DNA of 59,466 nt, filler included, from Bipalium vagum (lineage: Eukaryota): NCBI GenBank assembly GCA_037834085.1. It is 3 parts of 3 records of this genome, joined end to end, with 100 filler letters (N's around TTAATTAATTAA, not from the genome) between each part and the next. Parts side by side here need not be neighbours in the genome. Positions count along the whole stretch, not along the records: positions 42,394 to 59,466 come from JBBMKC010079724.1; 2 more parts are not named here. One strand, 5' to 3'. Every line of letters begins with the position of its first letter. The stretch's first letter is position 1. A program made the position numbers and the translations under genes. The notes under the pieces are model-generated. The model did not search any database. It was given only the letters and a program-made list of their open reading frames with translations, and was not told the DNA's origin. Positions 3,455 to 59,466 of this stretch are shown piece by piece.

Positions 3455-4829
3455 AAGAAAGAAATATTTCGTTTTTCGGGGAAATTTTTTTAAAAATAAA
3501 TTTTAAAAAGTCTTAAAGATTTTTAACTGTAAAAAGAAAACCGGTGATTAAATTTCAGCACTTTGATTGGTTTATATTTTTTTAATTCAAACAAGGAAAA
3601 TTGTCGATCATAATTCGAAATAAACCAGTAAACAAACAGTGGAGGAAAATCGACCTACCAGAAAACCCTTTAGTTCATATGCAAATCATCAATGCAATTA
3701 CCCTCAAAATGGACATATCCACCACTGGTGGGAAAATTGTTGATAATTTTGCATTTCCCTGGAGATATTAATTTAGGAATGAATTTCATGAAGAACACAG
3801 GCTTCATTATGCAGAGCTAATTGATGGAATCATCAAACTGATCAAGTTAGGTCGATAAATTGAGGTTTATTTTTCATTATTTTATATGGCTGCGGTGTGA
3901 AAATATACTTTCCGGCTGGTGGTTCATAGATGAATTAATCAATGCCTGAACTTTACTAGAAACACTGTTTAATTTCGATTTGATAGTTGGAAACGGCTTC
4001 CAATTTTCAGGGGGAAAATTGTCTACATATATATATTTTTTTTTGATAAAACGGATAAAATTTAAATAAATATATCTCCATGGTGATCGTTCTGTAAATT
4101 TTTCCCTGATCATTACGCTCTCTGAGATTTTTAGTGCTTTATATTAATAATTCAATTGACCGAAGACGTTATTGATCGGTAAATAAATAAATAATATAAA
4201 ATCGTCAATTATCATAATGGAAAAATTTTATTTTCTAAACAATTTTTTGTTTATTGATTTGCTGATTGGGACATTGTTGTGATTGATTTTTTATAAAATT
4301 TGAATGACAAGGGTAACGATTTCGGCTGGGCTGTGAAGGTTCTCTGTTGATATAAATCGATAAATTGGTATGAGAATTTTATTTTAATATTATCTGAAAA
4401 TGAGCTAAAATGTACAGAATATATTATATACAGTGGTGATCTTAAAAATTTCATTGTAATGAAAAAACAGTTCAAATTTAAACAATAAAAATTTATGACA
4501 TTTCAATTTTAATTTATTAAATAATAAATTTGTTTTAATGTAATTAAACAAAAAAAATAAACCGTATTCGTACAACGGCTTGAATTTTAGAATATTGTTT
4601 GCGATTATTACAATTGTTGAATATAAAAATACTTTGATTAATAATTAAATAATTACTAATTAAGTAATTAAATAAGTGAAATATATAAATAATTGATTAT
4701 TGGAATAAAAAATTTCAACTAAAGATTAAAATGGAAACGTCGGCTGGTAATGAATTTGTGGTCCAAGAAAATTAGAAAAAATGGGAGAAACCAAAATACT
4801 TTGAAAATGAAAACTAAAACAGATGAAAT

Positions 4830-5800: not shown

Positions 5801-7139
5801 GGAAAATTTAGATAAATCTTACTAATACTCTAATTTTAAAAAATCAATAAATGTACGTAAAAATATTGATATAAATAAGCTTTGTTGAATAGATATATAT
5901 TATTTCTTGCTTACTTAAAATTATAATTAAAATATATAATATAATTAGTAAGCTAAAAATTAAGATTTACGGTACATGATTTTATAGGGTTAAACAGAAA
6001 GTTGGTTCGTTTTTTTAATAGTAAAATTCAACGTAATATTTTGAAATGAATATTTATTACAATTCGATAATTTATTGAATAGTAAGTGTATGATATTTTG
6101 AAATGTGAAATTGTAAAGTTCTCTTCAAAGCAATAACGAAAAACATATCTTAATCAATATTTGAATCAATTAATTATACTTTTTTTAATTGAAAAGATAT
6201 TGATTAATTTTTTCTTAAAATAATATTTTTTAAAAATTAAATCATTTTTTGATATTTTAAAATTTCTGGTTACAACAAAAATATAATTTTTTAAAAAAAC
6301 CTAATAAAAATATAATTAGAATTTTTGATTTTCTCAATAATAATAAGCCAAAATTCGAACTCTGCTTACTAAAATTAATTGTAACTTATTAAGATTTAAT
6401 AAATTTTATCAATACCATAGTAAACCTCTTTCAGTATGCTGTCCGTTTTCTTTTAGTCTCGTCTGTATTTCTTCAATATGAATATTTTAATGAAAATTAT
6501 ATTTTAGTAAATTTAATAAAAATATGTTTTAAATGTTTTTTTTTCTAATTTTATTTTTGTAAATATTTCCATTAAAAAATTATAATTTATTTTCAGTTCA
6601 TTAATGATTTTATTTTAATTTTTAAAAAATTCAACAATGTCTATTAATAATTATTTTGATAATAAATTCCTGAAATTTTTATAAATTTATTCAATAAAAA
6701 AATACTTAATATTTTAATAAAAAAATCTTATAAATCTTAAAAATGATAAAAGTTTAAATTATTCAAAAATATGTTAATACAAAAGTCTGCTCTAATTGTC
6801 GCAATTGTTTTCGGAAAACTGTTTTGAATAATAATCAATTGATTGTTTTAATTTCTAAATTATAGCAAAAATTATTATTAAAAATTGAATTGTGAAATTT
6901 AAAAATTGATACAAAAATAAATATTTTTAATAATTATAAATAAAATATATATTAAAATATTTTCATCCAGATTTATTTAAATTAAGCGATTTCTAATTCT
7001 AAAATGAAAGGAATTGATTTATTTAAATGTAAATTTAATTAAACCATTTTTCATTATTCCGATCTTAGTTACGTTTTTTTTTATTTTTATCTAACATTTT
7101 TTTGTTTAAAATGTTTTCTTTTTGTGAACTTTTACTCTA

Positions 7140-7337: not shown

Positions 7338-7869
7338 TATTTTTAAAACCTTTTGATTTATTATCTTATTCCATTAAGAGGAAGGGTCGACATTTCTCAC
7401 AAGCAAAGCTGTTTCAATTAAATACCTGATTTGAAATCCATACTTTATCAATATATTTCTTCAAAGTATCAGGTTCAGACGACTAGACCTGTAATATGGT
7501 AATATTTATTTAAAACTATTATTTTTTTAAAAAGGGTTTTTTCCTCAAATTAAATTTATTATTCTATTATTTGTGGATCAATATTGACAAAAATAATTTT
7601 ATTTGATTTTATTAATTTATTATATATAATATTTCATGAGATCAAAAATATTAGAAAAATAATTCCTTAAATAAAAAAATCATTAAATATTTATTTTATT
7701 AATTTTAAAATTTCTAATTTTTAATAAAATTTAAAATTAATATATAATAAAATAAAATAATTTAAAACTCTTTAAAAATATTTTGTGTAAATTTTTACCA
7801 AAAAATTTTAAAAAATATTTTTTTTATTTTGTATTTTTTGTTTGAATAATCTTTATTAAAAAAATTAAA

Positions 7870-9520
7870 ATGAAACTTTATATTTTATTTATTTTGAATT
7901 TAATTTTGGGATTCACTTTTTCGGCAGTAAATTCTCTTGTAATTAGAAAAAAAAATGAGCCTGTTTCAAAGGATGAAATGTCCTTTTCACAGATTATTTC
8001 ATTATACCTCAAAAAGATCAATAGTATTAATATATATTCAAGGATTTTCATTTACGTTGTTCTGGTAATTATTGTTCTTGCTATTGTTCTTAAAATACTG
8101 TATACCATTTACGAAATTTTCTTACATGGCTTGGTTTCTCTTGTCTGCAAAAAGTGCAAATGTTTAAAAAAAACGGGAAGCACGTCAACATCTTGCGTGG
8201 ATACCCAGGGGAATCCAAGTTCCACGAATGAGTTGGTCCAGCATTCTCAGATGGGAAATATCAATCAAAATCATTTATCTAAATCCATTCCAAATGGGAA
8301 AATGCCAGAAAATCATATTTCTGAATTAAATAGATCAAACTTTAATCAACATTGTCAAAATAATGCAACTGGTAACAACTATGTAAATCAAGGGAATCCA
8401 AGACCAATGTATAACCCTAACTCTCAAATGATGAATTCTAACATGACCCATTCTATGCAACCAGGAGGAAGTATTGCCTTAAATCAAGTTAATCCTAATG
8501 GACATTTCCAAAATTTCGCAACTTGCAACAGTTCCTTAAATCAGGGGAATCCAAGACCAATGTTTAACCCTAACTCTCAAATGATGAATGGTAATATGCC
8601 CCATTCTTTGCAACCAGGAGGAAGTATTGCCTTAAATCAAGTAAATCCTAATGGACATTTCCAAAATTTCGCAACTTGCAACAGTTCCTTAAATCAGGGG
8701 AATCCAAGACCAATGTTTAANNNNNNNNNNNNNNNNNNNNNNNNNNNNNNNNNNNNNNNNNNNNNNNNNNNNNNNNNNNNNNNNNNNNNNNNNNNNNNNN
8801 NNNNNNNNNNNNNNNNNNNNCCCTAACTCTCAAATGATGAATGGTAATATGCCCCATTCTATGCAACCAGGAGGAAGTATTGCCTTAAATCAAGTTAATC
8901 CTAATGGACATTTCCAAAATTTCGCAACTTGTAACAGTTCCATAAATCAGGGGAATCCAAGACCAATGTATAACCCTAACTATCAAATGATGAATGGTAA
9001 TATGCCCCATTCTATGCAACCAGGAGGAAGTATTGCCTTAAATCAAGTAAATCCTAATGATCATTTCCAAAATTTCGCAACTTGTAACAGTTCCATAAAT
9101 CAGGGAAATCCAAGACCTATGAATCAGTTGGATTCTCTCTCTCAAATGACGAAACCAAATGTACCCCATTCATTGCAACCAATTTCGAATGAGAAAATCC
9201 CAGAAAAGTGTATATCTAATGTAAATCAAAAAAACCCCGATGGACCATATCAGACCCCTACCAACCCAGAAAGGAAGGTCAGTTTATTTGTTGAACGCGA
9301 TGAAAACCAAAAACATTTCATCAAATTTTCCGACTGCAAGTTCTTTCTGAAACAAGAAAAAAGTGGAAAGGCGTACTTTAAAAGTGATAAAGAAGAAAAA
9401 TTTTACTTGAAAAAAGATATAGATGGAAAACTCTTTATTGTGATCAGTGAATTTCAGGTATTCATAAATAATTCTGATTTAATTAGATCCATTTTGAAGC
9501 CAAGGGACAACAGAAGTTAG
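7870..9520 (+). CDS. Intronless orphan type I membrane protein: signal peptide, short ectodomain, TM helix, Cys/Lys juxtamembrane motif, 51-aa N/Q-rich tandem repeats, small beta-rich C-terminal domain
   Basis: ORFs 7870-8826 and 8834-9520 join in frame (TTTAA|CCCTAAC) when the 100-N gap is removed, giving at least 516 aa. Signal-like MKLYILFILNLILGFTFSA, TM IFIYVVLVIIVLAIVLKILY, then CKKCKCLKK. AATAAA lies ~50 nt after the stop. Confidence 0.8.
8386..9121 (+). repeat. 153-bp (51-aa) coding tandem repeat array, at least 4 full units
   Basis: Unit starts (AATCA[AG]GG.AATCCAAGACC) at 8386, 8539, 8692, 8945 and 9098. Spacings are 153, 153, 153+100N and 153. Confidence 0.95.
8721..8820. other. 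Assembly gap (100 N) inside the tandem array
   Basis: Plain run of N with flanks in exact repeat register. Confidence 0.98.
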
Positions 9521-36000: not shown

Positions 36001-39000
36001 GCCAAAAGGTGCTACTTTGCATGTGGTAGGCTATGAAAGGTCTTATTCACTATCAAGTAGATGAGACTATTAATGTTGAACGTACGAAAAGAGTTGCGTA
36101 AGATTTTTTTACTACATGACAATTCCAGGCAACATGTAGCTAAGCATAGGCAAGAAACAATCTTCCAATTAAGATGGGAAGTTCTTCACTCTGCTTATTC
36201 TCCGAACCTAGCTCCTACAAATTATCATTTGTTTCGTTCAGTACAACAATTATTTTAATGGCGTTTCAATCAAATTTAAGATTCACCATAAATAAGTTTT
36301 TCTCTGGTTTCAAAAAAGTAATAACAAAAAGTCATATCATTAAATAAATTATAATATAATTGAAAGATGGCTAATTACAAGGAGTGATTAAAGGTTTCAT
36401 AAGATAAGACTAAAACTTATGCATACTCCTAATATTATGGTAAAATAACTGTGATTTTCAATAAAATATATAATTTAAACTATTTTTATAAATTATGTTT
36501 AAATCATTAGGTTAAAGAAGAGCTTTGCAAGTGCCGCCTTTTACTTTACTTTAAAATAATTAGCTTGTCAAGATCAATAGAGAATGATTGAAATGCGTAA
36601 TTTTGCATATCAGATGAAATATTGGACAATTTAAAATGAAATAAAATATAAAAGTAAAAATAAATATATAATAAAATAAAAAATTTAATTACTATTTTTT
36701 TAAGATTATGTACAATCTACAAACCTCTTAAATAATCACATAGAAATCATTTTAAAATCTATATAAATAGTTATAAATTAATTAGTAGAAATCTAAAAAT
36801 TATGTTCAATTAAATTTTCGAGAAATATATTACAAATAATATATAAAAAAAGGTACATCTTCAATAATGTGGCGTAAAATTGACATCAAGTTCCTGAACG
36901 ACGTTAAATAAATGAGATTAAGATATTTTAATAAAACTGTATTTAACATAAGAATATACATTTAAAAGTGTTTAGTGGCGACTAAGCCTACAAACAAAGG
37001 CAGAACACGTCGAACTGTTCACCACAACACATGAATTTGTAAATTTGAGATATGAACAACGTCTCATATGAGACAAAGTGTATACAAAGTTTAAAAGGTC
37101 TTCAGTCTTCTGAGTGTGGATGGTGTCATGATTAGAATCATCATTAGAATTGTTTGTGTTTGTGATTTTCTTATATGTATTTATAAAAGGATTTCATAGC
37201 CGTTTACCGTTCTGAACAAGCAAGATTATGGCGGTTCAATCCAATTGAATGTACATTTTAAAATTCACAATAAATAAATATTTTGTTTTAATGACGTAAC
37301 AAAAAAGTAATATCATTAAATAAATTATAATATAATTGAAAAAGGAATGATTACAAGAAGCGATTAAGGGTTTCATGCAAATTTATATACATGATAATTA
37401 TTACATGATAAAAATTATTTAAATTGGTTACATTTAAACAGTTTCATTTAATATTTTATTTTTTATTAATATTGAAACTTTGATAGAGGTATGAAAGAAT
37501 TGTTACACTATTCAGTGTTTTATGTTAAAAGTTATGAAAAGTTATTTTTGAGGACGGGTAGGGACTGATCACTGAAACTCTGATCGATTTGTTGAATTCC
37601 AACTGAAATAGGAATTGATCCTCAGAAGAGCGTGAACTGTTTGCTTAGAAAAAGAAAAAAAAATAAAAAGAATTCACATAAGCTTCTAAATTTAGAAAAC
37701 TTTATGTAAAGCATCAGATTATTTTATCATTTCCAAATTATCATCATTCACTAAAAAAGGATCCAGATGATCACATCATATAGAAATGACATTATGAATT
37801 TTACTTTGAAAGGAAAATACTTTCAAAATTCTATTGAGGAAATAAAATTTCATAAATGAGTGTTATTAATAATAAAAGTATAATACTTTTTCATTATTCA
37901 CTTTGGTGAACAGATTTTTAATTATCAAAATATTTCAATAATTATTGAATTGTATCACAGGTGGATATCTAGTAAAGCAAGGAAAGAAGATCGCAAGTTT
38001 AAAAATAATAAACAAACTAAAATTAGCAAATAAAAGATCAATAAAATACAATATCACCATAAAACAGTATATGAAAAGGAAATGTCATTATAATACAAAT
38101 GACAATAAAATTTTATTATTAGCGATCTTAGATTCCTGGAGAAGATAAACAAAAATAAGTTATTCTTACTGTACTAATAGTTTTGGTTTATCATGTTAAA
38201 TAATATTTCTGGGTAATCAAAAGAGGTTAATAAAATTTTATTTTTTCATAATGCCATCAAAGTTATTAATTAACTGGTTATTTGATAACTCAGAAATATT
38301 AGGGTGATTCATAAGTAATATTGTTTATTATTTAAAATAATAAAAACAAAATAAAACAAAAACAACATTATATAATGTTTCAAAATAAAGGCCATTTGAA
38401 TCAGTAGTTTTAAGCCATCTATCTGCTAGTTGTTGGATCCCTTGTTTGTATCATTCCTTGTCCTTGGACCTGAAAAACTCTTGGCCGTTTAGATTTTGTC
38501 CGAGTTATTGAATCTACGCCCTCGAAGAAAATGTACCATTGATAGAAAAAGATGGTAATCCGATGATGCAAGATCGGGACTGTAAGCTGGATGTCTTAAA
38601 AAGTTCAATAGATTTACATTCTCTGATTTTTTTAATTGTATTATTCTTGGCAGTGTGAGGTTTTGCATTATCTTGCTGTAAGACCATCCGCTTTCGATTG
38701 ATCAATGCCGGATATTTCAGCTTTAATTTTTGAAACATTCGATCCAATTGAGCACAATATAGGTCTGTGTCTAGTGATATACTATTTGGAATCAATTCGA
38801 AGTGGATCATGTCTTCGAAATTCCACCAAATGCATAATAATTTCTGTGAAAATCGGACTCTTTTTGAAACAGGTTCTGCCATTTGTCCTGGGTGCAATGA
38901 CTGATTATTTTTGTGAGGATTGATAAAATATATCCAATTTTCATCAGAAGTTACAATTTGTCGAATGAAACGATCATCCCGATCATCATGACAATTCAAT

Positions 39001-42393: not shown

Positions 42394-42527
42394 AACAATT
42401 GACTCAAAGGTGGCTCCAAGTAACTGAAAATGATGGATTGTACTTTGAGGAATGATTGTGATTTTTTTTTTATTCTTGTAATTGAATATATTGAATAAAA
42501 ACGCTAATGACTTTTGACTCAACCTGG
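42394..42527 (+). mobile_element. Mariner 3' end with right TIR
   Basis: QLTQRWLQVTENDGLYFEE* followed by GACTTTTGACTCAACCTGG|TA. Confidence 0.75.
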
Positions 42528-42742
42528 TATATATGTAGAGTTAAAAAAAGAAGTATTTTGAAAAATTGATTTTAATCTGGTAACCACAAATAAGGAAAAC
42601 AAAATTAAATCAGTTAATTATTTTATTATTACATTATATATATTATTATTAATTTTATTGTTATTAAATAATCATAATTTCGTTAAATAATAATTTTTTT
42701 ATCCATTAAATCAATATTTTAAAACGTTATTGGTTTTTATAG

Positions 42743-45700
42743 CACGCGTCTTTTAATGGACGAATGAATGCATTAAATGAGTTGAACAAGCTTATAAAAT
42801 CAATGTCATCCACCATGTATCCGTCACATTCATCCGATGAGCACATTCTGAAATGGATAAAAAATAATGAAGTGTGTTTTCGTTTTTTTTCCTTGATCGA
42901 TTCGACTATTTTTTCTCTCACTGTGGGTTCTATTTTTATTGTTTGTCAGGTGTTGAACATTGTATTGAAAGAGAATCTTCATCAACCGCAGTATGTGGAA
43001 AAGGTAGAAAAACTTATTCAGTTTATGGTAAAATCAAACGGTCTGACTAATGAAGACTTGGATAAGTTATGGGATTCACAAATTGGTAAACACGAAGCTA
43101 TCATAACAAATATTCATGATTTATTGGCCAAATTGGCATACGACTTCAATCAGACTCAACTGCACCATCTGTTCGATTGTTTCCAGGCAAGTTATTTATT
43201 GATTTTTTAATACAAATTTATTGATTAATTATTGATCTATTATATCGATAAAGTATGTATCATTATTTCAATCATTGAATTTTTTCATATATTTTCAAGG
43301 TATTTTAATTTGTTTTGAATGAGTGATTTTTTATAAAATTATCAATTTTTATTTTTTTCCTCTTTATAAAGCGAGGTTATAGTAAAGATTTTAACTCCAC
43401 TATTGGCAAAGTTCAGATATTATCACATACAGACCATTTCTCCATAAGACCCAGTACAATATTCATTATTTGATTGTGGATTATTCAAGAGAGGATTAAC
43501 GAAATCTAGATTTGGCCGATGTGGCCAAACCACGCTATAGTGGGCATGATAAGACAGCACAGGATGCTGTCAAGTAATCAGATCAAAGGACAATTAGAAG
43601 AGCTGGGGATGAATATGTCAATACCTACGGTAAATTTTCATTTCAATGAATTAGGATCCAAGTCTGTGAATCCTACGAAGAAGTCTAAGTTGACTTCAAC
43701 TTTGAAAACCAAGCGTCTTAAATTTGTTTGTCAGTTGGTTGATAGACCAATTGAATTCTAAAGGAAGGTGTGCTTGAGTGATGAAAGATATCCGAGTTTC
43801 ATTCAGCTAATTAGAAACGTGTTTTGAAAACCCCGTGTAGTCCACCACCGGTGACAGAAACCGTTAAGAAGTCAGCCAAGGTATTGTTGTGGGGCTTTAT
43901 CAGTTCTAAAGGCCCTAGATGTCTTTTTATGATCGAAGGCATGATGAACAAGATGCAATATCTAAAAGGCATGAGAACACAATTGTTGTCACCGATCAAG
44001 ATTTGTTCGGATCGATTTCTGACTGCATATTCATGCATCATTCCGCGCCCTGCCATAAAGTCCAAGCCGTTTCCAATTTTTTGTCTTCCAACAATGTTCG
44101 CAGGACCCTGGTCAGGAAATTTGCTGGATCTGGACCCAATGACTCACACAATGAAGAAAAGTTTCATCAGCAGGATCAACAGTATCTGATTTCACATTGA
44201 AAATTTTTATGAGATGCTTCACAGATTTATTGGCAGTATGCCAAGCGTTTTCAGCAAGTGATCGATACTAAAGGCGGTCATACGTCATAGTAGTTGAAAA
44301 TATTGTTAATTGTTAATTATTCTTTTTCAGGCTCAACTTATGATCAACAAAAAACACTGTTCACAAAAATATAAATTAAACACATATAGTTAAGATAAAT
44401 TGAAAAAACATGAAGAATTGCAGTGATTATAGTAATGTGACGCATACTGTATATATACTATGGATATTCGATTTTTCGTTATATTACTTTTTGCCAATTT
44501 TTTCTTATTTATAATTTAATATGTATATTCTATTTTTCGCCAAAAAAATTTGCTCATTTATTCCTGGTTATTTAAAAGGTCATCATATTATTAATAATTT
44601 ATAATATTAGTAATATTTAGTTAATTTGTTAAGTATAATTTTCTTAAGTTCTAAATTGCTTTGAAAGCAAATTACTCAGAATGCATAAAGTTTTATGAAC
44701 AAAATTAAAAAAAGTCATCAGAATCGAAGATGAAAATTCAAACAAATCAAAAGAAATATGTAATATTATCTGTAAACATTAAACATTTTTCTTGATAACA
44801 AAAATGATATAACTAATAATACAATTATTTTTGACAGAAAAAAGAAAAAAAAGAATTCGAAATCGAAGGAAATGATGCAGCTGGATATTAAATCTTGAAT
44901 AAAAATTTTGAATTTTGTTGTTTCGCTTTAGTTACGGAGTTTTTAGACTGATATTCCAATTTTCGCTAAATTTTGTTTCTTCACATTTATCTTTTTTAAA
45001 GTACAGTCCTTGATGAAAATTCAAATATCTATTGTATATCAATCGATAATTGATTTATTTCTTACTTTAGTATTTTAAAAATTTTTAATAGTAAAATATC
45101 TGTAATTTTATTATTATTTATTTTAATTAATTATTTATTTGGATTAATTAAATTATTAATTTCATATTATTTAAAAAACTAATAAAAATAATTATGAAAT
45201 AATAATAAAACTAATGATTATAATAATAGTAAAAGTGAAATAATAATAAAAATTTATGATTATAAGTATAATAATAAAATAAATAATAATTATTTCAATT
45301 TTATTTATATATTATCAAACGAAAAAATCGTTACAAGATCTGTAAATATATAAAATAATTTTATTTTACAGCCATTTTGTTTTATATTATTCAACCGTAA
45401 AAAATATATGTCCGTAATATATCGATTCTAATTAGTTAACAAATGAACAATTTTCAGACAAGTACTATCAGCTATATAAATAGAACTAGAAATTATTAAG
45501 TTAATCCAATTTGTTTAAAATCAGATAAATATTGACATCATTGAGACAATAGTATTTAAGATTACTTTATAAATTATAAATCAAAAAATAATTAAACGAT
45601 TATAATATAAAAAGAAATAATTAATAATAATACATCCATCGTAATAATGATAATGATAATAATATTAAAAATAATATTAATAATCAATGATAGTAATAAA

Positions 45701-48700
45701 AAATAATAATAATCAGGAAAAATAATAATCAATAATAACAATAATAATAACAATAATAATAAACAATAATATTAATAAAAGTTATCAATAATACAATGTA
45801 TTAATGGTAATCAATAAATAAAGATTTATCAGTAATACTGTTAATAATCAGTATAAAATAGTTATGATGAAAGGCAACAGATAAATTCTCTAAGTTGTAC
45901 CAGTGCACTATTGTTTAAAGAAGTCTTTCAATGATTTATTGATTTTATTTCATTGCGTATTTTTTCTTACAGAACAGTTGGTCGAAAGCCTCGAAGAAAC
46001 AAAGAGAAAGACTGATCGATTTGATAAGAAAACTAGCCGAAGAGGATAAAGAAGGAAGAATGGCCAAAACAGCTTTGAAATTGCTCTGGGATTTGGCGAT
46101 AAAGAACGACAGTCCATTGGACATTTTAGAATCAGCTTTACGAGCTCATGTCAAAATTTTAGATTTCAGTTGCATTCAAGTGAGTCATATTTCTGGGTCA
46201 ATTCTTTCTACAGAAAATACAAGCCATGTCTACTGTTTTGAATTCAAATCATTTTTATATTGATTTTTTTATTTGATTGCTTAGTGATCAACCGGGATCT
46301 CAAAAATGAGAAAAAGAAAGAATATTTGTGTTCTATTATTAATATCCATAAAAATAATGATATCAATCAATCAATAATGATAAGAATTAAGTAAGAATCT
46401 CTATAATTGAAAGAGGTCTTACATACTTTCCACCAATGGAAATATGCTTTTTATTATCCATAAAAATAATTATATCAATCAATCAATAATGATAAGAATT
46501 AAGTAAGAATCTCTATAATTAAAAGAGGTCTTACATACTTTCCACCAATGGAAATATGCTGCTAATGAGAAAATGTTTATAAAAATATTTTATTTTTATC
46601 TTTAGATAGGAACATAAAACAGTAAAGATAATCATTAAAAGATAATTATAATTAAAATCACAATGTTCTTTTTATTCGTTTAAATAATATAAAGCTTAAT
46701 ATTTAAATAATAAAGTTTAATATTATTTACGGAAAAATCAATTAATTTTTGACTTTTATAAAAGTGATTTATATATTTTAAACGCAATTACTTAAAATTT
46801 ATATTTAAAAAATATGCAACATCTGTGATATAAATAACAAGTCTTTAGACTCATGCAGAAATAAAATTAAATCCAGAAAATTATATTAAATATATATATT
46901 ATATTATAAAATATTATTTAATCTGTTTTAAAAAAAATCATTTAATTACATTATTTATCACATTTCCTTTAATATACCAGAAAATCGAATTTTAAAGCGA
47001 TATTCGTTTTTTTGCTTCTGCTGAGGAAAGAAAAGAAAGATATTATTTGTCAGCTACATAAAGCATATGAAAATGAAGTTCCTATCAAGGCTACTATTTA
47101 TAATTGGACCAGAAGAGGTTTCTGGCTGGAGAAATATGTTTGATGAAGAAAGAAGTGGACAAAAATATGAAATAGGTGACCAGAAATTTGAAGTTCTTGA
47201 AGATTATTGTGAAAGAAGAAATTAATTACTCATACAGAGTTTGTAATATATACAGGACTGTATATAACAGGCTGGAATCAGAAAATTATGCAGTGGGTTC
47301 ATCTCCCATTTTCTAACAACAGATGTGTGAGAAAAAGGAATGCAAGCTTTCTCAGAAATGTGGCCTTTTTCTATTCTTTTGGATAAAATTTTCTTGAAGA
47401 ATATTATAACCAATGAAAAGACGCCATTAAGTCTTCGTGTTCCATACAATCTCGTGAATGGGTTTTTCTATTGAAAATCCACCAAAAATGCTTTGTTCTA
47501 AGATATCTCATCGACAAATTTTCATGCCTAGTGTGATTTAGGATGCAAAAAGTGTAATTCAGACTGACTTTACTCCGAAAATTATCGATTTGAATTAATA
47601 CTGCGCACTTGTTAGTGCTGTGAAAAAATTACGAAGGAACCCAAAGAATCAAGATCTTTTCACTCCCTGTAGTTCATACAACTTGCCAAACTATGGATGT
47701 AATCGCTGTAAAAGGTTTCTCTCTGTTTTCACACTCACCTTATAATTATGATTTTGATCCTATCGATTTCGTTTTGTTTAATCACTTTAAAAAACAGAAA
47801 AGAGATCCCGCGTGGTTATTTATAAAGCTCATTTGTTATAAACAAATAGTTTCTTTTTAGTATCATTCGTATTTCTATGAGTCTAAGGGGTTTATCCACG
47901 TCTCGAGTCTTATTATTTTTGGTAGAAAATAAAATTTTTACTCAAGGAAAAGAAATATTTTGAATATTATTTTAGCTTCGTCCTTTTCATTGTTTCACTT
48001 TAAAATGATTATTATAAGATGCAAAAAATTAATTGATTTTTTAATAATAAATTTTCAATTATTTAATGCGGTTTTAACATTATTTATCATTATATACAAC
48101 TGGTTTTTGAAAAATGCCATAATTCATTGATTTTTCATAATATTAATAATTTGTTTGATTGATTTTATTAATAGTTTTACAATTATCATATTTTATAATT
48201 TTCCACTAATAATGAAGTATTTTCACTCTATATTTATTTATGGACTATTATTTTGGAATATTAAATAATCATATTCATATTAGTATTATTAATGGTTTTT
48301 GTTTTTATTAGAGTTATTGATTATTTCATTAATAATATTGATTATTATTTATATTATTTATATTATTATTATTATTATTATTGAAAAATTAAACAGTAAA
48401 TGAATTTTTTTGAAATTTTTAATAATTTCAAACACTTTTTTCTTCTAAAATCAACTAATTGTCCATGTATAACTGAAAGTGGCTTTAATAATAACACATT
48501 CTCCCTATTGATTCTTCTGTATTATTTTTGGAAATGATTATTGAAATAATTTACACAACGAAACCTCTGAATATTTACAATTAATTATTGATTAATTTTT
48601 AATGTATATATAAATCTTATGTTAAATCATAATCAAATAAAATATTCGTAATCGGTTATCTTAGACAGTTTTTACAAAATGAGATAAAAAAATTAATATA

Positions 48701-51700
48701 TAAATTTCATAGAAAAACCTTTAACTTTCACCTTTAATTCAATTTTAGATTGATGAAAATTATAACTCAAATTAGATCAGAAAATCATATAATTAGTAAT
48801 GCCAATACTTTTTTTGAATTCCGTGATTATTTTTGTATACTTTCTTTTTCGAGCTTAAAAATATCTTAAAATTAAGGACAGAGATATTCATAGAAACGAA
48901 TGGTTAAATAATTTAATAAATTATTTGAATGATCAAAATATTCGAAAAAATGCTTTGTCTGCTCTTCGACAGATCAGAGAAATTATTAAATTATATCAGG
49001 TAAAAATTTTGTTATTTTATTTATATTTTAAATATTTGTTAGTTTGTTTTTTGAATAATTTATAATTATTTTTTATATTTTTATTATAATTTCACAATTT
49101 ATTAGTTTTTAAATTGAAATTATCTTTTTAATAATAATTATAAATTTTTTTATATTTTTTCTACAAATTATTTATATTCATGTCTATATTAATAAAGAAA
49201 TAAATATTTATTTGTTTCTTATAAATATATATTTTTAAAATTACTTATTTATATTTATCATAATTTTAAAAAAATATTTTTAAATAATTTATTGGATTTT
49301 TATTAATAGCAATTATAATATAAAGCATTGACTTAGCCATAATTTTATTATTTTTTTATATTATTTATTTAATTTATATTATTTTTAAAAATATATATGT
49401 AATGATTTTTTTATCAATATGGTTTTCATAATTGATTATTTTATATTCTGTTAATTTTATTTATCTCATATTTTTGTATTATTTTATTTAATGATGAATT
49501 ATGGTTTCTGGTCACTTTTAATAACTACTTAACAAAGGAGGCAATCTTTTATGTAAATAAAATCATGAAAAAAACGTATTCTAAATTGGTCTAATGAAAA
49601 TCAAAAACTGCACATCTTTACTATAAATCAATTATGAGTATTTCACACTTCTGATTGTAATTGCAAATCAATATCATCGTGCTGTGTGATGGTTATACGT
49701 TGAGTATGTGCAAAAATTCTTTTTGAAGATGTTAAACGAATTCATTAAAGAAGAAATTGTCATCAAATGAGATAACACTTTTCTCCAACAGTATTCATGA
49801 GAAACGGAAAACGATCATTGATATTTTCTCGTATTTATTTCAGATTTTATTGAAACAGAAATTTTTTAATTTTTATTATCATACAAATTATAATGTGATA
49901 TACGTGTTCAATGAGAATAGAGTATATGAAATTATGTATGTATGTAAAATTTTTAGTCTTATGCAATTATATAATCAAATATATATTAATTAAATATATA
50001 TTAAAAAATATTAATATATAATATAAAATAATAAAACTTTTCACTAAGGATTGAAAAAATGAGAATAAATGATCATATTTTTCAATTAAATTTGTGATAC
50101 TCTCAAACCAAAAAATAACGAAATTATAGCAGTAATAATATTGACACCAATTCCTTTTAACTTCAGCAAGCAATTTTTAATTCCAATAAAAACATTAGTC
50201 GCTCAATGATCATTCAACAATTGGAAAAGGATCATCAAATATTAAACTTGATAACCAATAATCTCATCGAGTATGTCGATAATTTTCGAAAATCAGGTTA
50301 GTAAAAATTGAACGTTTGCAAAAATTTCTAATTCATTTTAATTAATCAAAATAAATAATAATAATACACCCATTATCACTGAGATATCTAAATATAAAGA
50401 GTAGTACTTCTTGATTACTTGCCAAAAATAATTTTAGTACACTTAATTGTATTATAATTGAAATAAAATTTTATATCTCAACTCAGTCTCAAATGATTTC
50501 TCTTTTTGTTTCTGTGGAAAATAAATAGTCAACATTTTAAGTAATCTTAAATTAAATAACATTTTCATTGTTTCCTTTCAAGCTGCGAATAAGTAAATAA
50601 AGATAGCCATTATATATATTTATTTTAAGAATATTTTAATAAATTAAAAATATTTCTGAATGTTATTTAGTTTATTAGAATTTGTGAAATCATCGTAAAT
50701 CAATTTCCAAAAATCATAATCAATATGTCAAAGTCTTCTGACTTTTTAACTGACGTGAAAGCAATTATAAATGGTAATCAACATAAAATATTTATTGTTA
50801 TTCTTTACATAAGTCTAAATATTATTATTTATTTCTATTTTGCCGAAAACCTGTATTTTGAAACAAATTTAATTTTCAATTTATTTATTTATTACATTTG
50901 TTGATTAATTTTAATAATTAAACAACAGCTTTTGTTGTCAAGGAGAAAATGTGCGTATTTGAAAAATAAATTAATATAAATAATATGATATAATATTAAA
51001 ATCATGGTATTTAATTTTTAAACCATCTTTTAAAATTTACTGATTTAATTTATTTATAAAATTTAATATATTACAAATTAATCATTTCATAATTTTATCT
51101 AAATCTTAAATTTTCATTATAATTATTTTTATTAGTTTATATTATTAATTATTATAAATTTTATTATTATTATTATTAAAAAGTATAATCTAAATTATAA
51201 CTTTAAAATTAAAATTTTTTGTAATGAATAAATAAATTTTCTCCCTTTTTCAAGTTTTAAAAAAAAATTCTTCCAGGTCTTTAACATTATCATCTTTGGC
51301 CATGTACATACTGCACTAATTCATAGAATCCTTCGTATTTCCAACTTTTTTGTTTCGGAATTTGACTTTAACTACAACATTTTCCAGACTTTCAATTTCC
51401 TTTTTTACTATTTCCAAGTGTTCTATTCATTTTCTATAGATCTTTATGTCCAACCTTATTTCTAAGAGACTCATTCCAATTGTCTGTTACAGTGTAGAAT
51501 TACTTCCGAGAGAAACATTCTTTCCATATATAAGAAAACCAATAATTTAGCTTTAAAAAGAATAATCGAAGTTATCTCCAATAATCAATTATTCGTTTTC
51601 TTTCATTAATGCGTTGTATTATTTTTTGACACCTTGTTTCCTACAATCAGAATGAATAATTGACTTAAATAATGGAATTAAATAACAAAAGAATATCAGA

Positions 51701-54700
51701 ACATAACCTATTTTTATATTATGAAAAAAAAGCTTTCATACTATATTCAAAATAATAATGGCACAAAATTGTCTGTCAATTATCAGTTTTCATCTTCTAA
51801 TAATTGGGATCTGTAATGCTTTGAGTTAACAGGGATCTTGTTTGGTATTAAGAAATTTTTATAAAATCATTAAAATAAATTAATTTACTAAAGTAATATA
51901 AAATTTTATTTATTAAATACTTACCATGAAAATGTAAATTTAATTTAAAAATTACTTGTAATGCTTTAGAATTTTTATTAAATAATCATGTTTTCATTGA
52001 AATTTTTCAATTTTTATAGTTAAAATTAAAAATAATCAATAAATAATAAACAATTAATTACTTATATTAATAAAAATCTTTAAAATATTGATTTCTCATA
52101 AATTTAGTGTGATTAGTTTTGATTTAATATTGTTAATAAATCAAAATTTTTAAGCTTTTAATTGAAAATAATCTTAAAATAGTTCTAGATGAAATCTATT
52201 TTATTGATTTATTTATTATTATCAAAATTAAAATATTAATAAAAATATTTATATATTATATGAATTGGAATTAAAACCCCGAATCAATTAAAAGTTTCTC
52301 ATTTCAACGATAAATGTTTTAAATTTCAGAAATCGATTTAAACGATAACAATTTCTGTTATTTGGATGAAAAGTTTCCTCATGAAATCCAGATCGATGAT
52401 CGATTAGAGCTTTTGAAATTCCTTCTTGTGGAGGGCTCTTTGATATTAAATAATAATCTTTTATCGTCGATTTGGACTTGTCTTGTAGTGTGTCCTCATG
52501 AGTGTAACAATTCCAGTATTTTGTCAGACAGAGATCAATGTTTCAAGTGGTTGGCAGGTCTCATGGAAATTGACAAAATTCCTTTCGAGGAACAAATGAT
52601 GGAAAATTTTTTCCTGGACAATTTCCTCAAATTGGACCCTAAACTATTGACTTTAAGTGGAATATTGTAAGAACTTGTTGTCATTTATTCCCCATTTAAT
52701 GGATTTCCAATATCTATTGACCGAAGATTGTTTGAGCAGTTTTTTCGATCGATAAATCAAAAGAAAGGGTTTATTCGAGAAATCGATTCCGACAATTACG
52801 TTGTTATTCACACTGAACTGATTGGGCTGGATTATTTGTGGCGATGTGCTATGCACTGTGTTGATGATGAAGTGTTCAATAAAATCATCCACATTTTGAA
52901 AATGATCACCACTAACCTCAGTTTCGGTTTAATCGATAAAAGAAATTCGATCAACGAGGAATTTATTCAACATTGTATTCACATCATGTCGAGTGCTTTC
53001 GATACGGTATAAGTTCTTTTTTATTTGATTAATATATAAAGTTTTTAATGTATTCTTTGTCCTACATTTTTTAAAATTACTATTTCAATATTTACAAAAA
53101 TTATTTTTGCTTACATAATGAAAATTATTAAACTAATATTTTCACAAGAGAATAATTGATTTTATAAAACTTCCCAATTATATAAAATTATTGATTTCTC
53201 GTATTTTAAAAAGTTTAAATTTGAAAAATCAATAAAATTTTACTTTAAATGCCTTTGTTTTAATAATAATAGGTAAATATATTTTTATTTATTAAAGTGA
53301 TTGATCTATGTGATACAAAAGGGATAATATATTATAAAGCATAAACTTTTTATCTTATTTTTTATGTTCACCTCCAAAACCCTTAGTAAATAATATCACT
53401 TTTAAACTATAATTGTTTGTTTTATACTATTCTAATATTAATTTGGAATTTCCATGGATATTGAAGCGATATTAAGTTTTTAATGTTGTGAAATAAAACA
53501 ATTTAAATTATTTTGGCCGATTTTAAGTGAATTATTATTATGGCAACCAAAAAATTCTGAAAAAGTGCAAAATTTCTTAAGAATAATGCAAAAAATGCAA
53601 CTACTTTGCAAAAATTTTCAAAGCTATTTAGAAAAATTTCATTAAAAATTAGATATGAATTACAAAGTTTTATTCAACTGTACCATCATTTGCTAAGGTA
53701 AAATTAACTCATGTGACTAAATACTTTTGACCATAATTGTATTTAATTTTCAAAATTGCATTTAATTTATGTGATGAAGATCTATTATGAACTATTGATT
53801 GTAGCAATAATTTTCTGTGATATTTAACCATATTCGGTGTTATTAGCTTGTATAAAGATCTTAATTATATTTATCTAGCATGTAAATTTGTTTTTGAAAT
53901 AAAATTTTGTATATATAATTGTATTTATTATATGACAAAATTATTTTTAAATTCTTAATAATTAATTATAAATAATAATTACGTGTGATTATTTAAAATT
54001 GAAGCTTTACATATGTATTATTTAAACAAAATGCAAAAAATGCAATTGGTTGCCCTACTTATTACTTATCTCTGGATTGGTTAGATTTTAATAACCAATA
54101 ACAAATAGTATTGGTTAAATGTAAATTATTTTCAACAAAATATCATATATTACTTTTGTAAAACAATCATTTTACTAATATTAAAAATTGAACTTGTCAC
54201 AAGAATATCAATTAATTTCGTGAAACGTTCCACAAAACTAAAATTTGTCGATTTTACATATTTTATTATTGAAAATTGTTTTGGCACTTTATTCGTACTT
54301 AAAATATCTCTTTAATTTAGAATATTAATAAATTAAAACAATTAAAAAAACTTATGTTAAACAGAAAAATGATCAAATTGTAATAATTTTTCTTATATCG
54401 TCGTTTTTTATATTTATAATTATTTAATATTTCACGTATTTTTTGGAGTTCTGTTTATCTAAAAATCTTTCAAATAAGTGTTTATGGCATTATTGTCACT
54501 TATCGCTTATCTGTTTTATTGTAAATATATTTTTTAATTTGCTTTATGTTTATAAGAACTGACTATTGATTTTAAAATCTTTTAATTCTCAATGATATTT
54601 AAATTAATAAAAATTAAAATCAATAAATGAATAAATTTGTTGTGAATGAGTTTTATTTTCTAATTTCTAGCAAAGCAATCAACTCAAATGTTTAATAGTT

Positions 54701-56301
54701 TACCAAATCATAAGATTCCTTGCAGTTAGGTAATGTTAAATTATGAATGGGAAATTTTTTATGCATCATTATTATGTCAAACATGACAAATCATCCAAGA
54801 CCTGATGCCAGAAAATCATTACATTGGTACTTAATTATATAAATCTTATAAAATTATGCATATAAGTTAGTTGTAAGACATGATTCATTGAGAACTAAAA
54901 AAAAATAAAATCAATGCAAGAAATTGAAAGACGGTGTCAAAAAACCAAATATCGTCATACTAATGAGATGGTTTTGAAAAATCGAATTAGAAGCAAATAA
55001 ACGTTGAGATTTCTAGTGATTCCTAAAAATCAATAATCGGTTCTCAAATTCTGTGATAGATTTCACGATTTTTCCCAGTGGGAGTAGTGATTCTTCTATT
55101 TGATGATTAAAATATTTTAATGTTTTGAGAAAATTAATTATTGGTTAGTTTTGCTGTGTAATCTCTAATACCTTTATAATTTATTAAGAGCAATTAATAT
55201 CACATCTTAAAATGCTAAAATTAAACTAAAAAATTCAATATTCATGATTATGTCTATCATCTGTTTGGTTGAATTGATACTTTTAAAAATTCTAAATAAG
55301 TATTGATTATTCTGTTTTTTAAAGTATATATATATATATATATATACACCTTTACAAATTGATGTAATTTGAATTTATAATACCAGATTCTTAAGAATAA
55401 CATTTTAAATGAATCTGATAAATATTGATTAAAGACACTGAATAAAAAAAGAATGCGTTTCAGGAGAAAGAAAGAAAATTTTTCCAATTTTTATCTGTAA
55501 GAAAAGAATTTAGGAATTTTAAAGCTAATAATATCTTTTTCAATGGATAAAAAGTACTTTCTATGTAACACTATAAATAATTGAATAATGAGAAAAATAT
55601 TTTACGAAACCAAAGTTTCATTTTGAATATTGAGATGAAAAAAAATTAACAAAAAAAGTAACACGTCCAAATAAATGAATATAAGGTTGTTTCATAAAAT
55701 AATCTTCGAAAAGAATAGAACAGATTTCATAGTGCATTTATGTTTATTGGACGTTCCACGATATATAAAAGTCATCTGTTCTATGATTATTAATAATATT
55801 CAATACTTAGGGTAATATCATGTAAATTATTCTTTGGTTTTTAAGCGAGTTTACTCTAATATACTATGCAATTTTTGATTTTATTATAAATTTCTCTACT
55901 TTTAAGGCATTTTGATTTTTGAAATAAATTAATTAAATATTGATTTTGAGTTTTAAGGTCATGTAATCTTTAATTAAAAATGTTTTACTTTTATTCTAAA
56001 GATAAATATTTATTTCACAATTATTATTGTGTTGTTATTGATTTTCAATTTTAACCATTACTATTCAATATTTAAAAGAAAATAAATACTATTTGTGAAT
56101 TTTCAAGGCCAAATGCCTACTGTCAAAGTTTCACGTAGTATCAACACCAGAAGATAATTATCAAGAACATTATTGCGAAGTGTCTTCGGAAATGGAAGAG
56201 TCGGTTAATAAAATGACAAATATTATTCAAATTTTATGTGAATTTGTCCGAGAATGTGACAATCGATTTGTTATGGAACGAAAAAATCCAGCTCTTTGCA
56301 G
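42743..56301 (+). CDS. USP9X: Ubiquitin carboxyl-terminal hydrolase USP9X / fat facets, eight internal exons (5' and 3' parts absent from the window)
   Basis: Exons 42743-42871, 42950-43186, 45973-46179, 48877-48999, 50167-50296, 52330-52666, 52727-53006 and 56108-56301, all phase-compatible. Diagnostic motifs [85 protein letters not shown] and [10 protein letters not shown]. Confidence 0.93.
43251..44448 (+). mobile_element. Decayed Tc1-family element in a USP9X intron
   Basis: [21 protein letters not shown] and [10 protein letters not shown]. Right TIR ...GACGCATACTG|TA with a degenerate match near 43251. Confidence 0.8.
46343..46560. repeat. Near-perfect tandem duplication, 112-bp period
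   Basis: 46343-46448 equals 46455-46560 apart from 2 substitutions. Confidence 0.95.
46960..47900 (+). mobile_element. Heavily decayed mariner relic
   Basis: [23 protein letters not shown] and [21 protein letters not shown] follow the mariner transposase layout. Confidence 0.6.
53539..54057. mobile_element. Probable MITE (hAT-like TAGGG terminus), ~520 bp
   Basis: Termini TATGGCAACCAA / TTGGTTGCCCTA. Candidate 8-bp TSD ATTATTAT / CTTATTAC. Subterminal AAAATGCA repeats. Confidence 0.55.
55325..55346. repeat. (TA)n microsatellite
   Basis: Direct read. Confidence 0.9.
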
Positions 56302-56465
56302 GTATGAATATTATGATTATTATTGATCAACTGAACTAATCTATTTTTCTTAACAAAAATCAATATATAAACTTGAAGCAGTGGTCATACAAAATTTTAG
56401 GGAATAAATATTTTCCATTTGATTCATCAATTTTCTTTGTCTGGAAATTTTAATCATGTTTTTAA

Positions 56466-56612
56466 AAAATTCCAAAATTCTCTCAATTTTTGTTTGAATA
56501 ATATTTAAATTGGATACAATGATTTATAATTAGTTTTAAATAAATATTAAAACAGCCGAGAATAATATAAAAAGCGACATGATTGAAAAAAAAATTCTTT
56601 AAAATAATTTTT
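56466..56612. repeat. Left copy of the ~147-bp direct repeat flanking MAK16
   Basis: Matches 57338-57484 with 4 substitutions and two 2-bp indels. Confidence 0.95.
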
Positions 56613-56615
56613 TAT

Positions 56616-57310
56616 TTACGATTTACGATTTTCAATAACAAGTTGCTTGTCGAATGATTCTTCGATGTCCTCCTCGGACTCGATGTCTGATGCTTCCACA
56701 TATTTGCAAACTTCATTTTCATCCTTATCACAAGCAGAAGACTCATAATCATACTCTTCCTCGTTTTCCGACATTTCCATCTCGTTCTCCTTCAAGTAAC
56801 TATCAAGCATTCCTTGTTCAAATTAAACATGCTATTTTTCTTCATTAATCTCTCTAACAATTCAGTCTCGATAGATTTTACCATCTTCGCTGCTCTTAAG
56901 GCTTTCATTTCTCTGCGACTTTCATTCCTTTCAATTTTTCGAGATTTGGCTATCAGGACTTTTTTACTGTCCAATTCCATATATCTTCGTCTTTTGACAA
57001 CTTTTTTGAAGCATGCAAATCGCGTCTTAACCTTTTTAATTATGTGTTTGGGCCAGTATATCAAATGGTGATTTATTTGCTCTAATGCATCATTTAGTGA
57101 TTCTTTTAATTTTATAATATCCCAATGTTTTGCTGGATAAGGCATTCTTTCAGGTTCTCTAATGTATAAAGAAATTATGTTATCCTTTTCTTTGATTGTC
57201 GCGTAACGACTATTAGCCAATGGATAAACTGTAAGGTTACACAGTCCATCTAAATTATATTCATTTTGGCAATGTTTTTGTGTTTTTGTTTTATTTAAGA
57301 AGGAGCAATG
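56616..57310 (-). pseudogene. MAK16: Intronless MAK16 (60S biogenesis factor) pseudogene, antisense within a USP9X intron
   Basis: HCSFLNKTKTQKHCQNEYNLDGLCNLTVYPLANSRYATIKE...ALEQINHHLIYWP...IETELLERL plus an acidic tail identifies Mak16. No start codon (in-frame TAA just upstream), the conserved CPLANS reads YPLANS, and there is a 1-nt frameshift near 56810. Confidence 0.9.
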
Positions 57311-57337
57311 TGATTAATATTAATTTTGATTAATATT

Positions 57338-57484
57338 AAAATTCCAAAATTCTCTCTTAATTTTTGTTTGAATAATATTTAAATTGGATAAAATGATTTA
57401 TAATTAATTTTAAATAAATATTAAAACAGTCGAGAATAATATAAAAAGCGACATGATTGAAAAAAATTCTCTAAAATAATTTTT
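57338..57484. repeat. Right copy of the ~147-bp direct repeat flanking MAK16
   Basis: Matches 56466-56612. Confidence 0.95.
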
Positions 57485-57934
57485 GATTTTATATATTAAA
57501 TGGCCTTGAAAACTGGATCAGGTGTGATAAAAAGGCTCCACAAACGATTGCAAAGTCCAGTTTGTCTTCAAAAAAAAGAATGAAAAATATCAATAGTTCA
57601 ATTTTTTCTAAAAAAATTTCTTAAAATTGTTCTATTGATAAAAGTTAGAAATTAGTATTTTTAACGTTGAACATCTAGATCTTGCTTTAAAAAATCACAT
57701 TATCATTTATAAACAGAAATCTGTTTTTTTAAAAAGACATTGTATATAAATCGATTTAATATTTAAAACTGATTATTTCTCGAAAGTGATTTTAAAATTT
57801 TTGTAATCTACTGAATTTAGGTAAGTTTTCAAGTACATTTTAAAGAAACAATATTAATAGTTTCATTTATTTTATGAAGGTGGATATGTGAATAATTCTA
57901 TTTTAATTGCCTGATTTTTTTTGGGTAGTTTTTG

Positions 57935-58483
57935 TAATATTGTTAATATTCACACAAATATTAAACAAACTGAATTTTATTCTGACTCTAAATTCCAAAA
58001 TAATGGTTCGTTCGAGTCAATTTATTCACCAAAAAGTTAAATCACATCGTAATAATATCACTTTCAATCAAATCGTTTTTGTCCTTGTTATCGGCTTAAT
58101 TCTAATTTTTTTCTGGCTTTGTCCGGCTCGAATTTGTTCTCATCAATTTTTTTGCTTTGATTTGGTTCTGCTGTGGAAAATCTGGTAGTTGCTTATATAA
58201 TCTCCTGTTTACCTCCATTGGGGCCAATCACTCACCATAGCAGAGACATCTGCCCTCTTTGGCTTGTGCATACGTAGAACCCCGAGCTTTCAATTATCCA
58301 GCTCAACCTGAACTTAGTTGCCTGATCTGATTGCTAAGCTCAAAAGCTCTTCATCTCTGCGTGGGTCATCCTCATCTCTTTTCCATTAGGACAATGTCAA
58401 CCCGGGAGCTTTAATTATTCAGGTCAGGCCAAGTTGAATAATTAAATGGATTAAGTTTCCTAAAAATCATCAATAAAAATACA
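57935..58483 (-). mobile_element. Possible solo LTR or other repeat fragment
   Basis: GC-richer non-coding island with minus-strand TATATAAG (~58192), downstream AATAAA (~58021) and an internal diverged ~35-bp repeat. No clear TSD. Confidence 0.3.
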
Positions 58484-58639
58484 TATTTTTTTAATATGGA
58501 AAAGTGGTAATTATAATTTATCATTTCTCCATTTGTTATCATTTTATTATTATAGTATTAATAATTAACCGAAATTATATAAGATTATCGTTATGATAAA
58601 ATAAAACCAAAACAGAAAAGATATAAAATCTTACTTTCT

Positions 58640-59000
58640 AAAACCAAATCCATTTGAAACAGCATCATAAAATATATAAATTTTTCAATATTTCCAACAA
58701 TATATTTCATAAATGTAAGAACAATGGCGATGATTTATTGTTGCGACCGATAATACATAATATCCAATAAGCATATCTATCAGTAAACGTTTGACCAAGT
58801 CAACCAATATTAAACACCATCTCACAAACAGACACAATCCAAATCTTGATTTTCCGATAAATGTTCAATCAAATGATGCATCCTACAATTACTCACCACG
58901 CACCGACGCAAAACACAAATACGTTTTAACGGTTCCAAATGGATCCGTTGGGAATTCATGTCACTTCTAGTCTCAATATCACTACATGCAAAACGCAACA
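58640..59000 (-). mobile_element. Possible piggyBac-like transposase trace
   Basis: Degenerate VFVFCVGA...GCII*LNIYRK, loosely like piggyBac K.FVLCD..GY...FEIY.GK. Confidence 0.2.
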
Positions 59001-59400
59001 TGATTATCCTTCACAGAAAATTTAAAAATTTAACTCAATTTTTACTTAAATATAATATTTAACATATTGGTATATAAAAATAATAATCAAATAAATCTGA
59101 TCACTAATTATCACCTGTAGTGTTAGAAAAAAGGCATTTTAATCAGAACTATATTGACCGGTTGTTATTAAAGTTTTAAAATTGTTAAAAAACATTCAAT
59201 ATTTCAAAATAATTTAAATTATTTAATTAGTTAATTTTCTAATATTTAATTCTCTTCATTAATATTGGTTTAAAATACTTATTACAAATATCTCATAAAA
59301 GAACGAGATGCTATAACAAATTTTTATTTTTATATTAAATTTATAAAAATATAAAAGTAATAATTAAATAGCGACGAAAATTGGTTTTACATTTCGATTT

Positions 59401-59402
<2 letters not shown>

Positions 59403-59466
<64 letters not shown>
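59403..59466. repeat. (ATT)n microsatellite running off the window end
   Basis: Direct read, about 21 units. Confidence 0.95.

Follow-up and report, generated by a model that had tools for sequence, protein, structure and literature searches.

Long target duplications are made by RTE-1 of C. elegans. In bdelloids, R9, a derivative of R2, cuts the two strands 126 bp apart (cited in PMC6895275, PMC2861651 and PMC5035012). R9 and RTE-1 both duplicate the target around the element itself, R9 doing so at a fixed rDNA site. Tailless retropseudogenes are described as therian, L1-made sequences with duplications of 8–30 nt (Noll et al. 2015, PMC5322556), and they are attributed there to internal priming. 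Class 2 templated sequence insertions, reported from human or mouse, are defined as being without a target-site duplication (Onozawa and Aplan, PMC5110952), and break repair is described as capturing sequences that are truncated at both ends and show microhomology (Ono et al. 2015, PMC4516963). In 'cycles' of templated insertion host sequence is re-replicated (Li et al. 2020, PMC7025897), and 3′-protruding breaks give rise to tandem duplications, sometimes with templated inserts, microhomology together with locally templated filler being given as the footprint of polymerase-theta-type joining (PMC5730883).

The locus considered here lies on a contig (C79724) that occupies positions 42394–59466 of the window, which is the whole 59,466-nucleotide stretch of Bipalium vagum DNA that was analysed, filler included (assembly GCA_037834085.1). 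It consists of a decayed fragment of the housekeeping gene MAK16 set between two copies of a 147-bp sequence, with the following features:

56108..56301, plus strand: USP9X-like exon upstream of the insertion (start placed at a candidate acceptor; donor 56301/56302; open reading frame 56099–56326)
56466..56612, no strand assigned: left repeat copy (alignment reaches 56617 across the junction microhomology)
56606..56632, minus strand: 3′ junction of the copy, where a 7-base repeat of the parent matches the target edge
56613..57314, minus strand: decayed MAK16 fragment, about nt 39 to 729–733 of the 768-nt parent coding sequence
57315..57337, no strand assigned: 23-nt filler at the 5′ junction, containing a short unit present twice
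57338..57484, no strand assigned: right repeat copy (alignment reaches 57489)

With class 2 insertions and break capture, as characterized in PMC5110952 and PMC4516963, this locus shares an origin from distant sequence, truncation at both ends and the absence of poly(A), as well as microhomology at one of its junctions and extra bases at the opposite one. Class 2 insertions are from human or mouse and free of duplication, whereas here a decayed insertion with a 147-bp duplication is found in an invertebrate; the locus works like a class 2 insertion but carries the duplication that the definition precludes, and is not filed as one. The layout of repeat, insert and repeat, the distant template and the re-replicated host segment are shared with cycles of templated insertion (PMC7025897), and tandem duplications from 3′-protruding breaks (PMC5730883) likewise re-replicate a host segment around a templated insert. 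In the accounts given, however, both are somatic or induced, and the cycles are mostly of larger scale; the template here may have been either DNA or RNA. Tailless retropseudogenes (PMC5322556) resemble the locus in their 3′-truncated RNA-type sequence, A-rich internal end and direct repeat, but no L1-type partner is evident here. The likeness to R9 and RTE-1 lies in the length class of the flanking duplication. The structure is real and tidy and most likely ordinary, the kind of scar being already known.

The two repeat copies, with a GC content of 16–17%, align over 145 columns with four substitutions and two 2-bp indels, and the alignment continues five bases beyond the unit at the cost of one further mismatch. 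This confirms an earlier note on this DNA, which had described two direct repeats with four substitutions and two short indels bracketing the insert. BLAST with the 147-bp unit returns two matches in the 441-Mb assembly, a count obtained with a DNA search that ignores simple and very common words. A 20-nt pattern taken from the unit, with one mismatch allowed, also has two matches in the assembly, and its reversed control has none. Beyond these two matches the assembly yields no further copies or solo LTRs of the repeat, and TG..CA ends, a PBS-like TGG and a polypurine tract are absent from the repeats in either orientation. The proposal that the repeat does not look like an LTR or TRIM is therefore upheld, and membership of a dispersed family or TRIM is rejected because there are only two copies, neither with LTR hallmarks. 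The repeat is a duplication confined to this locus and linked to the insert.

The insert itself (56613–57337, 725 bp) is composed of the 23-nt filler and about 700 nt of MAK16 in antisense orientation to the host gene, and its minus strand contains both MAK16 domains (Pfam PF01778, E=1.4e-21; PF04874, E=2.6e-9). Start codon, parental stop, UTR and poly(A) are all missing from the MAK16 copy, whose two ends lie inside the coding sequence and whose longest A-run is six. Relative to the parent, the copy has a 1-bp frameshift near 56806, two in-frame indels and 51 substitutions over 680 cleaned columns (55/700 uncleaned), with a pN/pS of 0.75, and residues kept in 9–11 of 11 outgroups are gone from it. 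The copy is dead and decaying. It comprises 90% of the coding sequence and no flanking DNA; an equally long DNA fragment placed at random stays wholly inside the coding sequence in 74 of 768 placements (10%). Measured against processed pseudogenes, it has neither 3′ UTR nor poly(A), and its flanking duplication is 147 bp rather than about 8–30 nt, but no parental flanking DNA was copied, the alignment ending inside the coding sequence on both sides. On the MAK16 strand the differences between copy and parent are biased, with G-to-A at 16 of 152 G against C-to-T at 2 of 90 (p=0.02) and in mixed contexts. This bias is possibly linked to transcription of the host gene; editing of a cDNA was set aside as its cause, the sequence contexts being mixed.

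One other MAK16 locus was found, spread over two contigs (L004 and L005) that overlap exactly by 77 nt. Read through this overlap, it encodes an intact 255-aa protein in a coding sequence without introns, with an AATAAA 64 nt beyond the stop and, directly before the ATG, a T-run and AG that would constitute a candidate intron or trans-splice acceptor. The parent is thus a separate, intact gene on other contigs. Since its coding sequence is itself intronless, the absence of introns from the copy is uninformative about an RNA origin; the earlier description of the copy as intronless stands as an observation but loses its bearing on mechanism. Many of the best kinase matches in the assembly are likewise single open frames. 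The flanks of the parent show no resemblance to the repeat (85–146 of 200 shuffles score as high), so that a segmental duplication of the parent locus is rejected as the origin of the copy, and the earlier concern that the 147-bp unit might also flank the parent MAK16 is removed. Reads covering the 3′ part of the parent have a depth of about 32, with short side branches near the start, and give no hint of a third MAK16 copy.

The site of insertion is a USP9X intron. Exons upstream of the adjoining exon match human USP9X and PF25010, and the following exon, on contig C261624, has a UCH_UBL1 domain (PF22900) and joins the 56301 donor in matching 2|1 phase; the adjoining exon (56108..56301) has no direct PDB match of its own. 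The assignment also draws on a likeness of the host gene to human USP9X. Neighbouring contig numbers in this assembly do not denote genomic neighbours. The left repeat begins 164 bp past the splice donor at 56301, in agreement with the antisense position about 170 bp downstream of a USP9X exon that had been noted earlier.

Both ends of the insert bear traces of how it was joined. At the 3′ junction, 11 of 12 bases match the target at parent nt 716, beside the breakpoint, a score equalled or exceeded at 3 of 756 coding positions when nine target offsets are allowed. The junction falls on an A-rich site within the gene that can pair with a T-rich end of the target, as in tailless retropseudogenes, and repair predicts the same. 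The polarity of the T-rich target strand primes copying from the 3′ side of the gene and is therefore compatible with reverse transcription as well as with repair synthesis. At the 5′ junction, the filler agrees at 17 of 19 bases with sequence that lies 30–47 nt into the adjoining repeat; the repeat edge supplies 6 of the 19, and one of 137 control windows does equally well. Both junction tests were picked after seeing the data, in DNA that is very AT-rich.

The repeats and the copy differ in apparent age. The repeats show 4 differences in 145 columns and the copy–parent comparison 55 in 700 (Fisher p=0.03); with per-base rates applied to the composition of the repeats, 8.6 differences are expected (P=0.07–0.14). 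The repeats thus look younger than the split between copy and parent, but the gap is non-significant after this correction for composition. The best matches available as MAK16 outgroups are 58% identical, and polarization of 23 amino-acid differences in the N-terminal part therefore used 11 distant proteins; it assigns 10 as new in the copy and 8 as new in the parent, with 5 tied. As 8 of the 23 changes fall on the parent side, either the parent lineage has also been fast or the donor was another allele. The parent MAK16 itself has changed residues kept in 7–10 of 11 outgroups.

How often short two-copy repeats occur in this genome was surveyed in 117 contigs (1.35 Mb, 0.3% of the assembly), a non-random set picked from kinase, RT and repeat matches, with direct repeats of 45–600 bp, at least 85% identity and a spacing of 30–8,000 bp as criteria. 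Eleven rows were returned, and besides the present locus two pairs are two-copy genome-wide:

C234339 (L164) 4228–4322 and 6263–6357: 95-bp pair, 96% identical, in two introns of an intact PB1-kinase gene
C197276 (L227) 7833–7898 and 8818–8883: 66-bp pair, 89% identical, bracketing a 5′-truncated mariner and 117 bp of other DNA

The remaining exons of the PB1-kinase gene, presumably MAP2K5-like, lie outside the 95-bp pair, each copy of which abuts a piece of dispersed repeat; the 66-bp pair is possibly a second scar of the form duplication, insert, duplication. Because short two-copy duplications arise around non-retro DNA, two copies alone do not prove the target-site duplication of an element. 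The lengths of 95 and 66 bp also lend no support to a significance of the near match between 147 bp and the nucleosome core, which the earlier note had itself put forward as perhaps coincidence. The other rows were set aside. The pair at 36275–36400 and 37257–37376 looks like a long flanking repeat but is made up of two mariner 3′ ends, both decayed and separated by 860 bp. The C244692 pair belongs to a tandem unit, the C271084 pair to a dispersed family and the C706 pair to probable LTR ends; three short-gap pairs (C2, L154 and L235) were discarded, L154 alone having been viewed.

The assembly is rich in reverse transcriptases (5,450 candidates, 150 of them scored), among them non-LTR enzymes with long open frames. 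An R2-like family, native to AT-rich contigs, is dispersed outside rDNA, with 153 matches listed and a best PDB match of E=2.5e-124. Its copies show a conserved 3′ hairpin followed by a T-run (C27580, C91762, C43926, C195292, C82671, C253073 and C220830; L262–L268; L013, L017 and L018). Non-specific R2 families are known in a planarian and a fluke (PMC5035012), and the S1 supplement of that paper gives only 20 nt of flank for planarian R2NS-1, too short for long duplications. As R9 with its 126-bp stagger derives from R2, this family is the best suspect for an element that makes long duplications. None of the seven R2-like loci analysed, out of 153 matches and four of them with both flanks in view, has long flanking repeats, and the loci therefore lack the duplications that surround R9 and RTE-1. 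Two of the four with both flanks have an intact 3′ hairpin end, and the only self-match is of 29 nt, inside one element. The same procedure recovered the present locus in 50 of 50 trials after mutation to about 20% divergence. Because the tested copies are few and old (75–92% identical to the nearest intact contigs), the idea of an R9-type element is weakened rather than excluded.

RTE-like elements, a clade that we assign from motifs rather than from a tree, are represented by seven fragment clusters in three contigs of 37–40% GC, two of which were chosen for that match; no such fragments occur in the 108 lower-GC contigs of the survey (117 contigs). Their 3′ ends give 27 matches, 26 of them in contigs of less than 500 bp, so that the flanks are not comparable. 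RTE-like fragments (L108, L109–L110, L237 and many contigs under 500 bp) are concentrated in contigs of 37–40% GC and in tiny ones, most long contigs having 25–30%, and may come from a second organism in the sample. None of the 14 RT-fragment clusters in the 1.35 Mb is bracketed by a surveyed repeat pair. Neither the R2-like loci nor these clusters provided LINEs with flanking repeats of 100–200 bp, for which the earlier note had proposed a scan. The open literature searched, which leaves subscription papers to one side, names no gene copy with a duplication of more than 100 bp.

The 147-bp stretch is duplicated locally and occurs twice; the insert lies directly against it, the parent is a separate, intact and intronless gene, and the copy is decaying. 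We take this structure to be a patch left by a single repair event, the break having been staggered or re-replicated, a reading to which we assign a probability of about 0.55, and prefer this to the activity of a new jumping gene. If the ends of a break lay 147 bp from each other, or a fork restarted 147 bp back, a T-rich 3′ end would be exposed; this end would pair with the short repeat close to the 3′ terminus of MAK16 and prime the copying of about 700 nt; the new strand would then rejoin the other end through the 23-nt filler drawn from nearby sequence, in polymerase-theta-type joining, and fill-in would leave the stretch in two copies. On this view the break, and not the endonuclease of an element, would set how long the duplication is. 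Support comes from the truncation at both coding ends, without tail or 3′ UTR despite the AATAAA of the parent; from the 3′ microhomology and the locally matching filler; and from the lack of long repeats at the R2-like loci, together with the two other pairs found around non-retro DNA. The chances that the template was MAK16 mRNA or cDNA and that it was genomic DNA are about even: the missing tail and a duplication far beyond the ranges of LINEs favour DNA, whereas a fragment made wholly of coding sequence, which so few random placements on DNA would give, favours RNA. Several observations tell against a repair patch. The microhomology lies on the side, and on the T-rich strand, where target-primed reverse transcription starts; the fragment is 90% coding without flanking DNA; the R2-like family is abundant and dispersed, belongs to the clade that includes R9, and was tested on a small sample; class 2 insertions are by definition without duplication; and the repeats are less diverged than the copy is from its parent, at the significance given above. 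Of the mechanisms in the earlier note, the best fit is repair that copies sequence into a widely staggered break, while retroposition by a long-TSD retroelement, which it placed foremost, is not supported: an intronless parent offers no intron loss as evidence, there is no poly(A) and no 3′ UTR, the seven R2-like loci are without long repeats, and RTE-like fragments in the survey occur only in higher-GC contigs.

A non-LTR reverse transcriptase, R2-like or of an APE-type LINE, could instead have nicked the T-rich target and primed inside the MAK16 mRNA, a sporadic distant second nick producing the 147 bp and leaving a tailless retrocopy. We consider this unlikely, though it deserves to be taken seriously. 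The polarity of the microhomology, at a T-run then A, suits target-primed reverse transcription, the MAK16 insert is wholly mRNA-type sequence, enzymes with long open frames are present in the assembly, and internal priming yields tailless retropseudogenes (PMC5322556); published duplications, on the other hand, are of 8–30 nt, 10–20 bp or 12–18 bp in the accounts available, neither intron loss nor a tail marks an RNA origin, and the R2-like loci gave 0 of 7. It is a long shot that a dispersed, non-site-specific element of the R2 clade copied the MAK16 mRNA in trans by internal priming and made its second cut about one nucleosome (147 bp) away in the manner of R9. A dedicated R9-like or RTE-1-like element that routinely makes duplications of about 150 bp and moved MAK16 mRNA in trans is distinctly improbable: the 126-bp stagger of R9, the R2-like family native to AT-rich contigs and RTE-like frames in the assembly (their clade again taken from motifs) would suit it, but own copies with duplications of more than 100 bp number 0 of 7 R2-like loci (4 with both flanks), none of the 14 RT clusters is bracketed by a listed pair, and the 7 RTE-like clusters are confined to 3 higher-GC contigs that may belong to another organism.

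The structure might also have formed in two steps, an older MAK16 copy having been followed later by duplication or homogenization of its 147-bp flank, or the donor might have been a diverged allele or paralogue. The younger look of the repeats, the polarized differences (judged by 11 distant outgroups, the copy keeps the ancestral state at 8 of 23 and the parent at 10, with 5 tied) and the occurrence of short two-copy duplications around native exons of this genome are in keeping with such a history, to which we give only a slim prospect, as gaps of 0 and 23 nt separate the repeats from the insert, a closeness that random placement would seldom produce, the age gap is non-significant after correction for composition, and only one other MAK16 locus was found. 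TRIM LTRs with a captured MAK16, or an error of short-read assembly, are barely credible. The assembly is fragmented (272,664 contigs) and a single sequencing run contains this DNA, but the repeat has two copies without LTR hallmarks, these copies differ at six places, and 51 of 680 sites distinguish the insert from its parent. The longest exact run common to both repeats is 36 nt, shorter than the 77-nt contig overlaps in the assembly, which makes misassembly unlikely.

As a repair patch, the locus matters little beyond being a clean germ-line invertebrate example of a kind of scar already described at induced breaks and in cancer genomes. It also carries a caution: where the parent is itself intronless, finding an intronless copy flanked by a two-copy repeat is no proof of retroposition. 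Were the reading with an R2-clade element true, an R2-type enzyme acting outside rDNA would have produced this retrocopy of a host gene together with its giant target duplication; this would mean that R2-type enzymes copy host mRNAs with a nucleosome-scale stagger at ordinary sites, and would bear on how LINEs choose the second-strand cut, a question raised in PMC6895275.

Elsewhere in the window, the surveyed pair at 8415–9121 was set aside because it spans an N gap. At 8343–9181 a repeat of 150–300 bp lies on either side of the 100-N gap 8721–8820, and is probably an unresolved tandem repeat at a scaffold gap.
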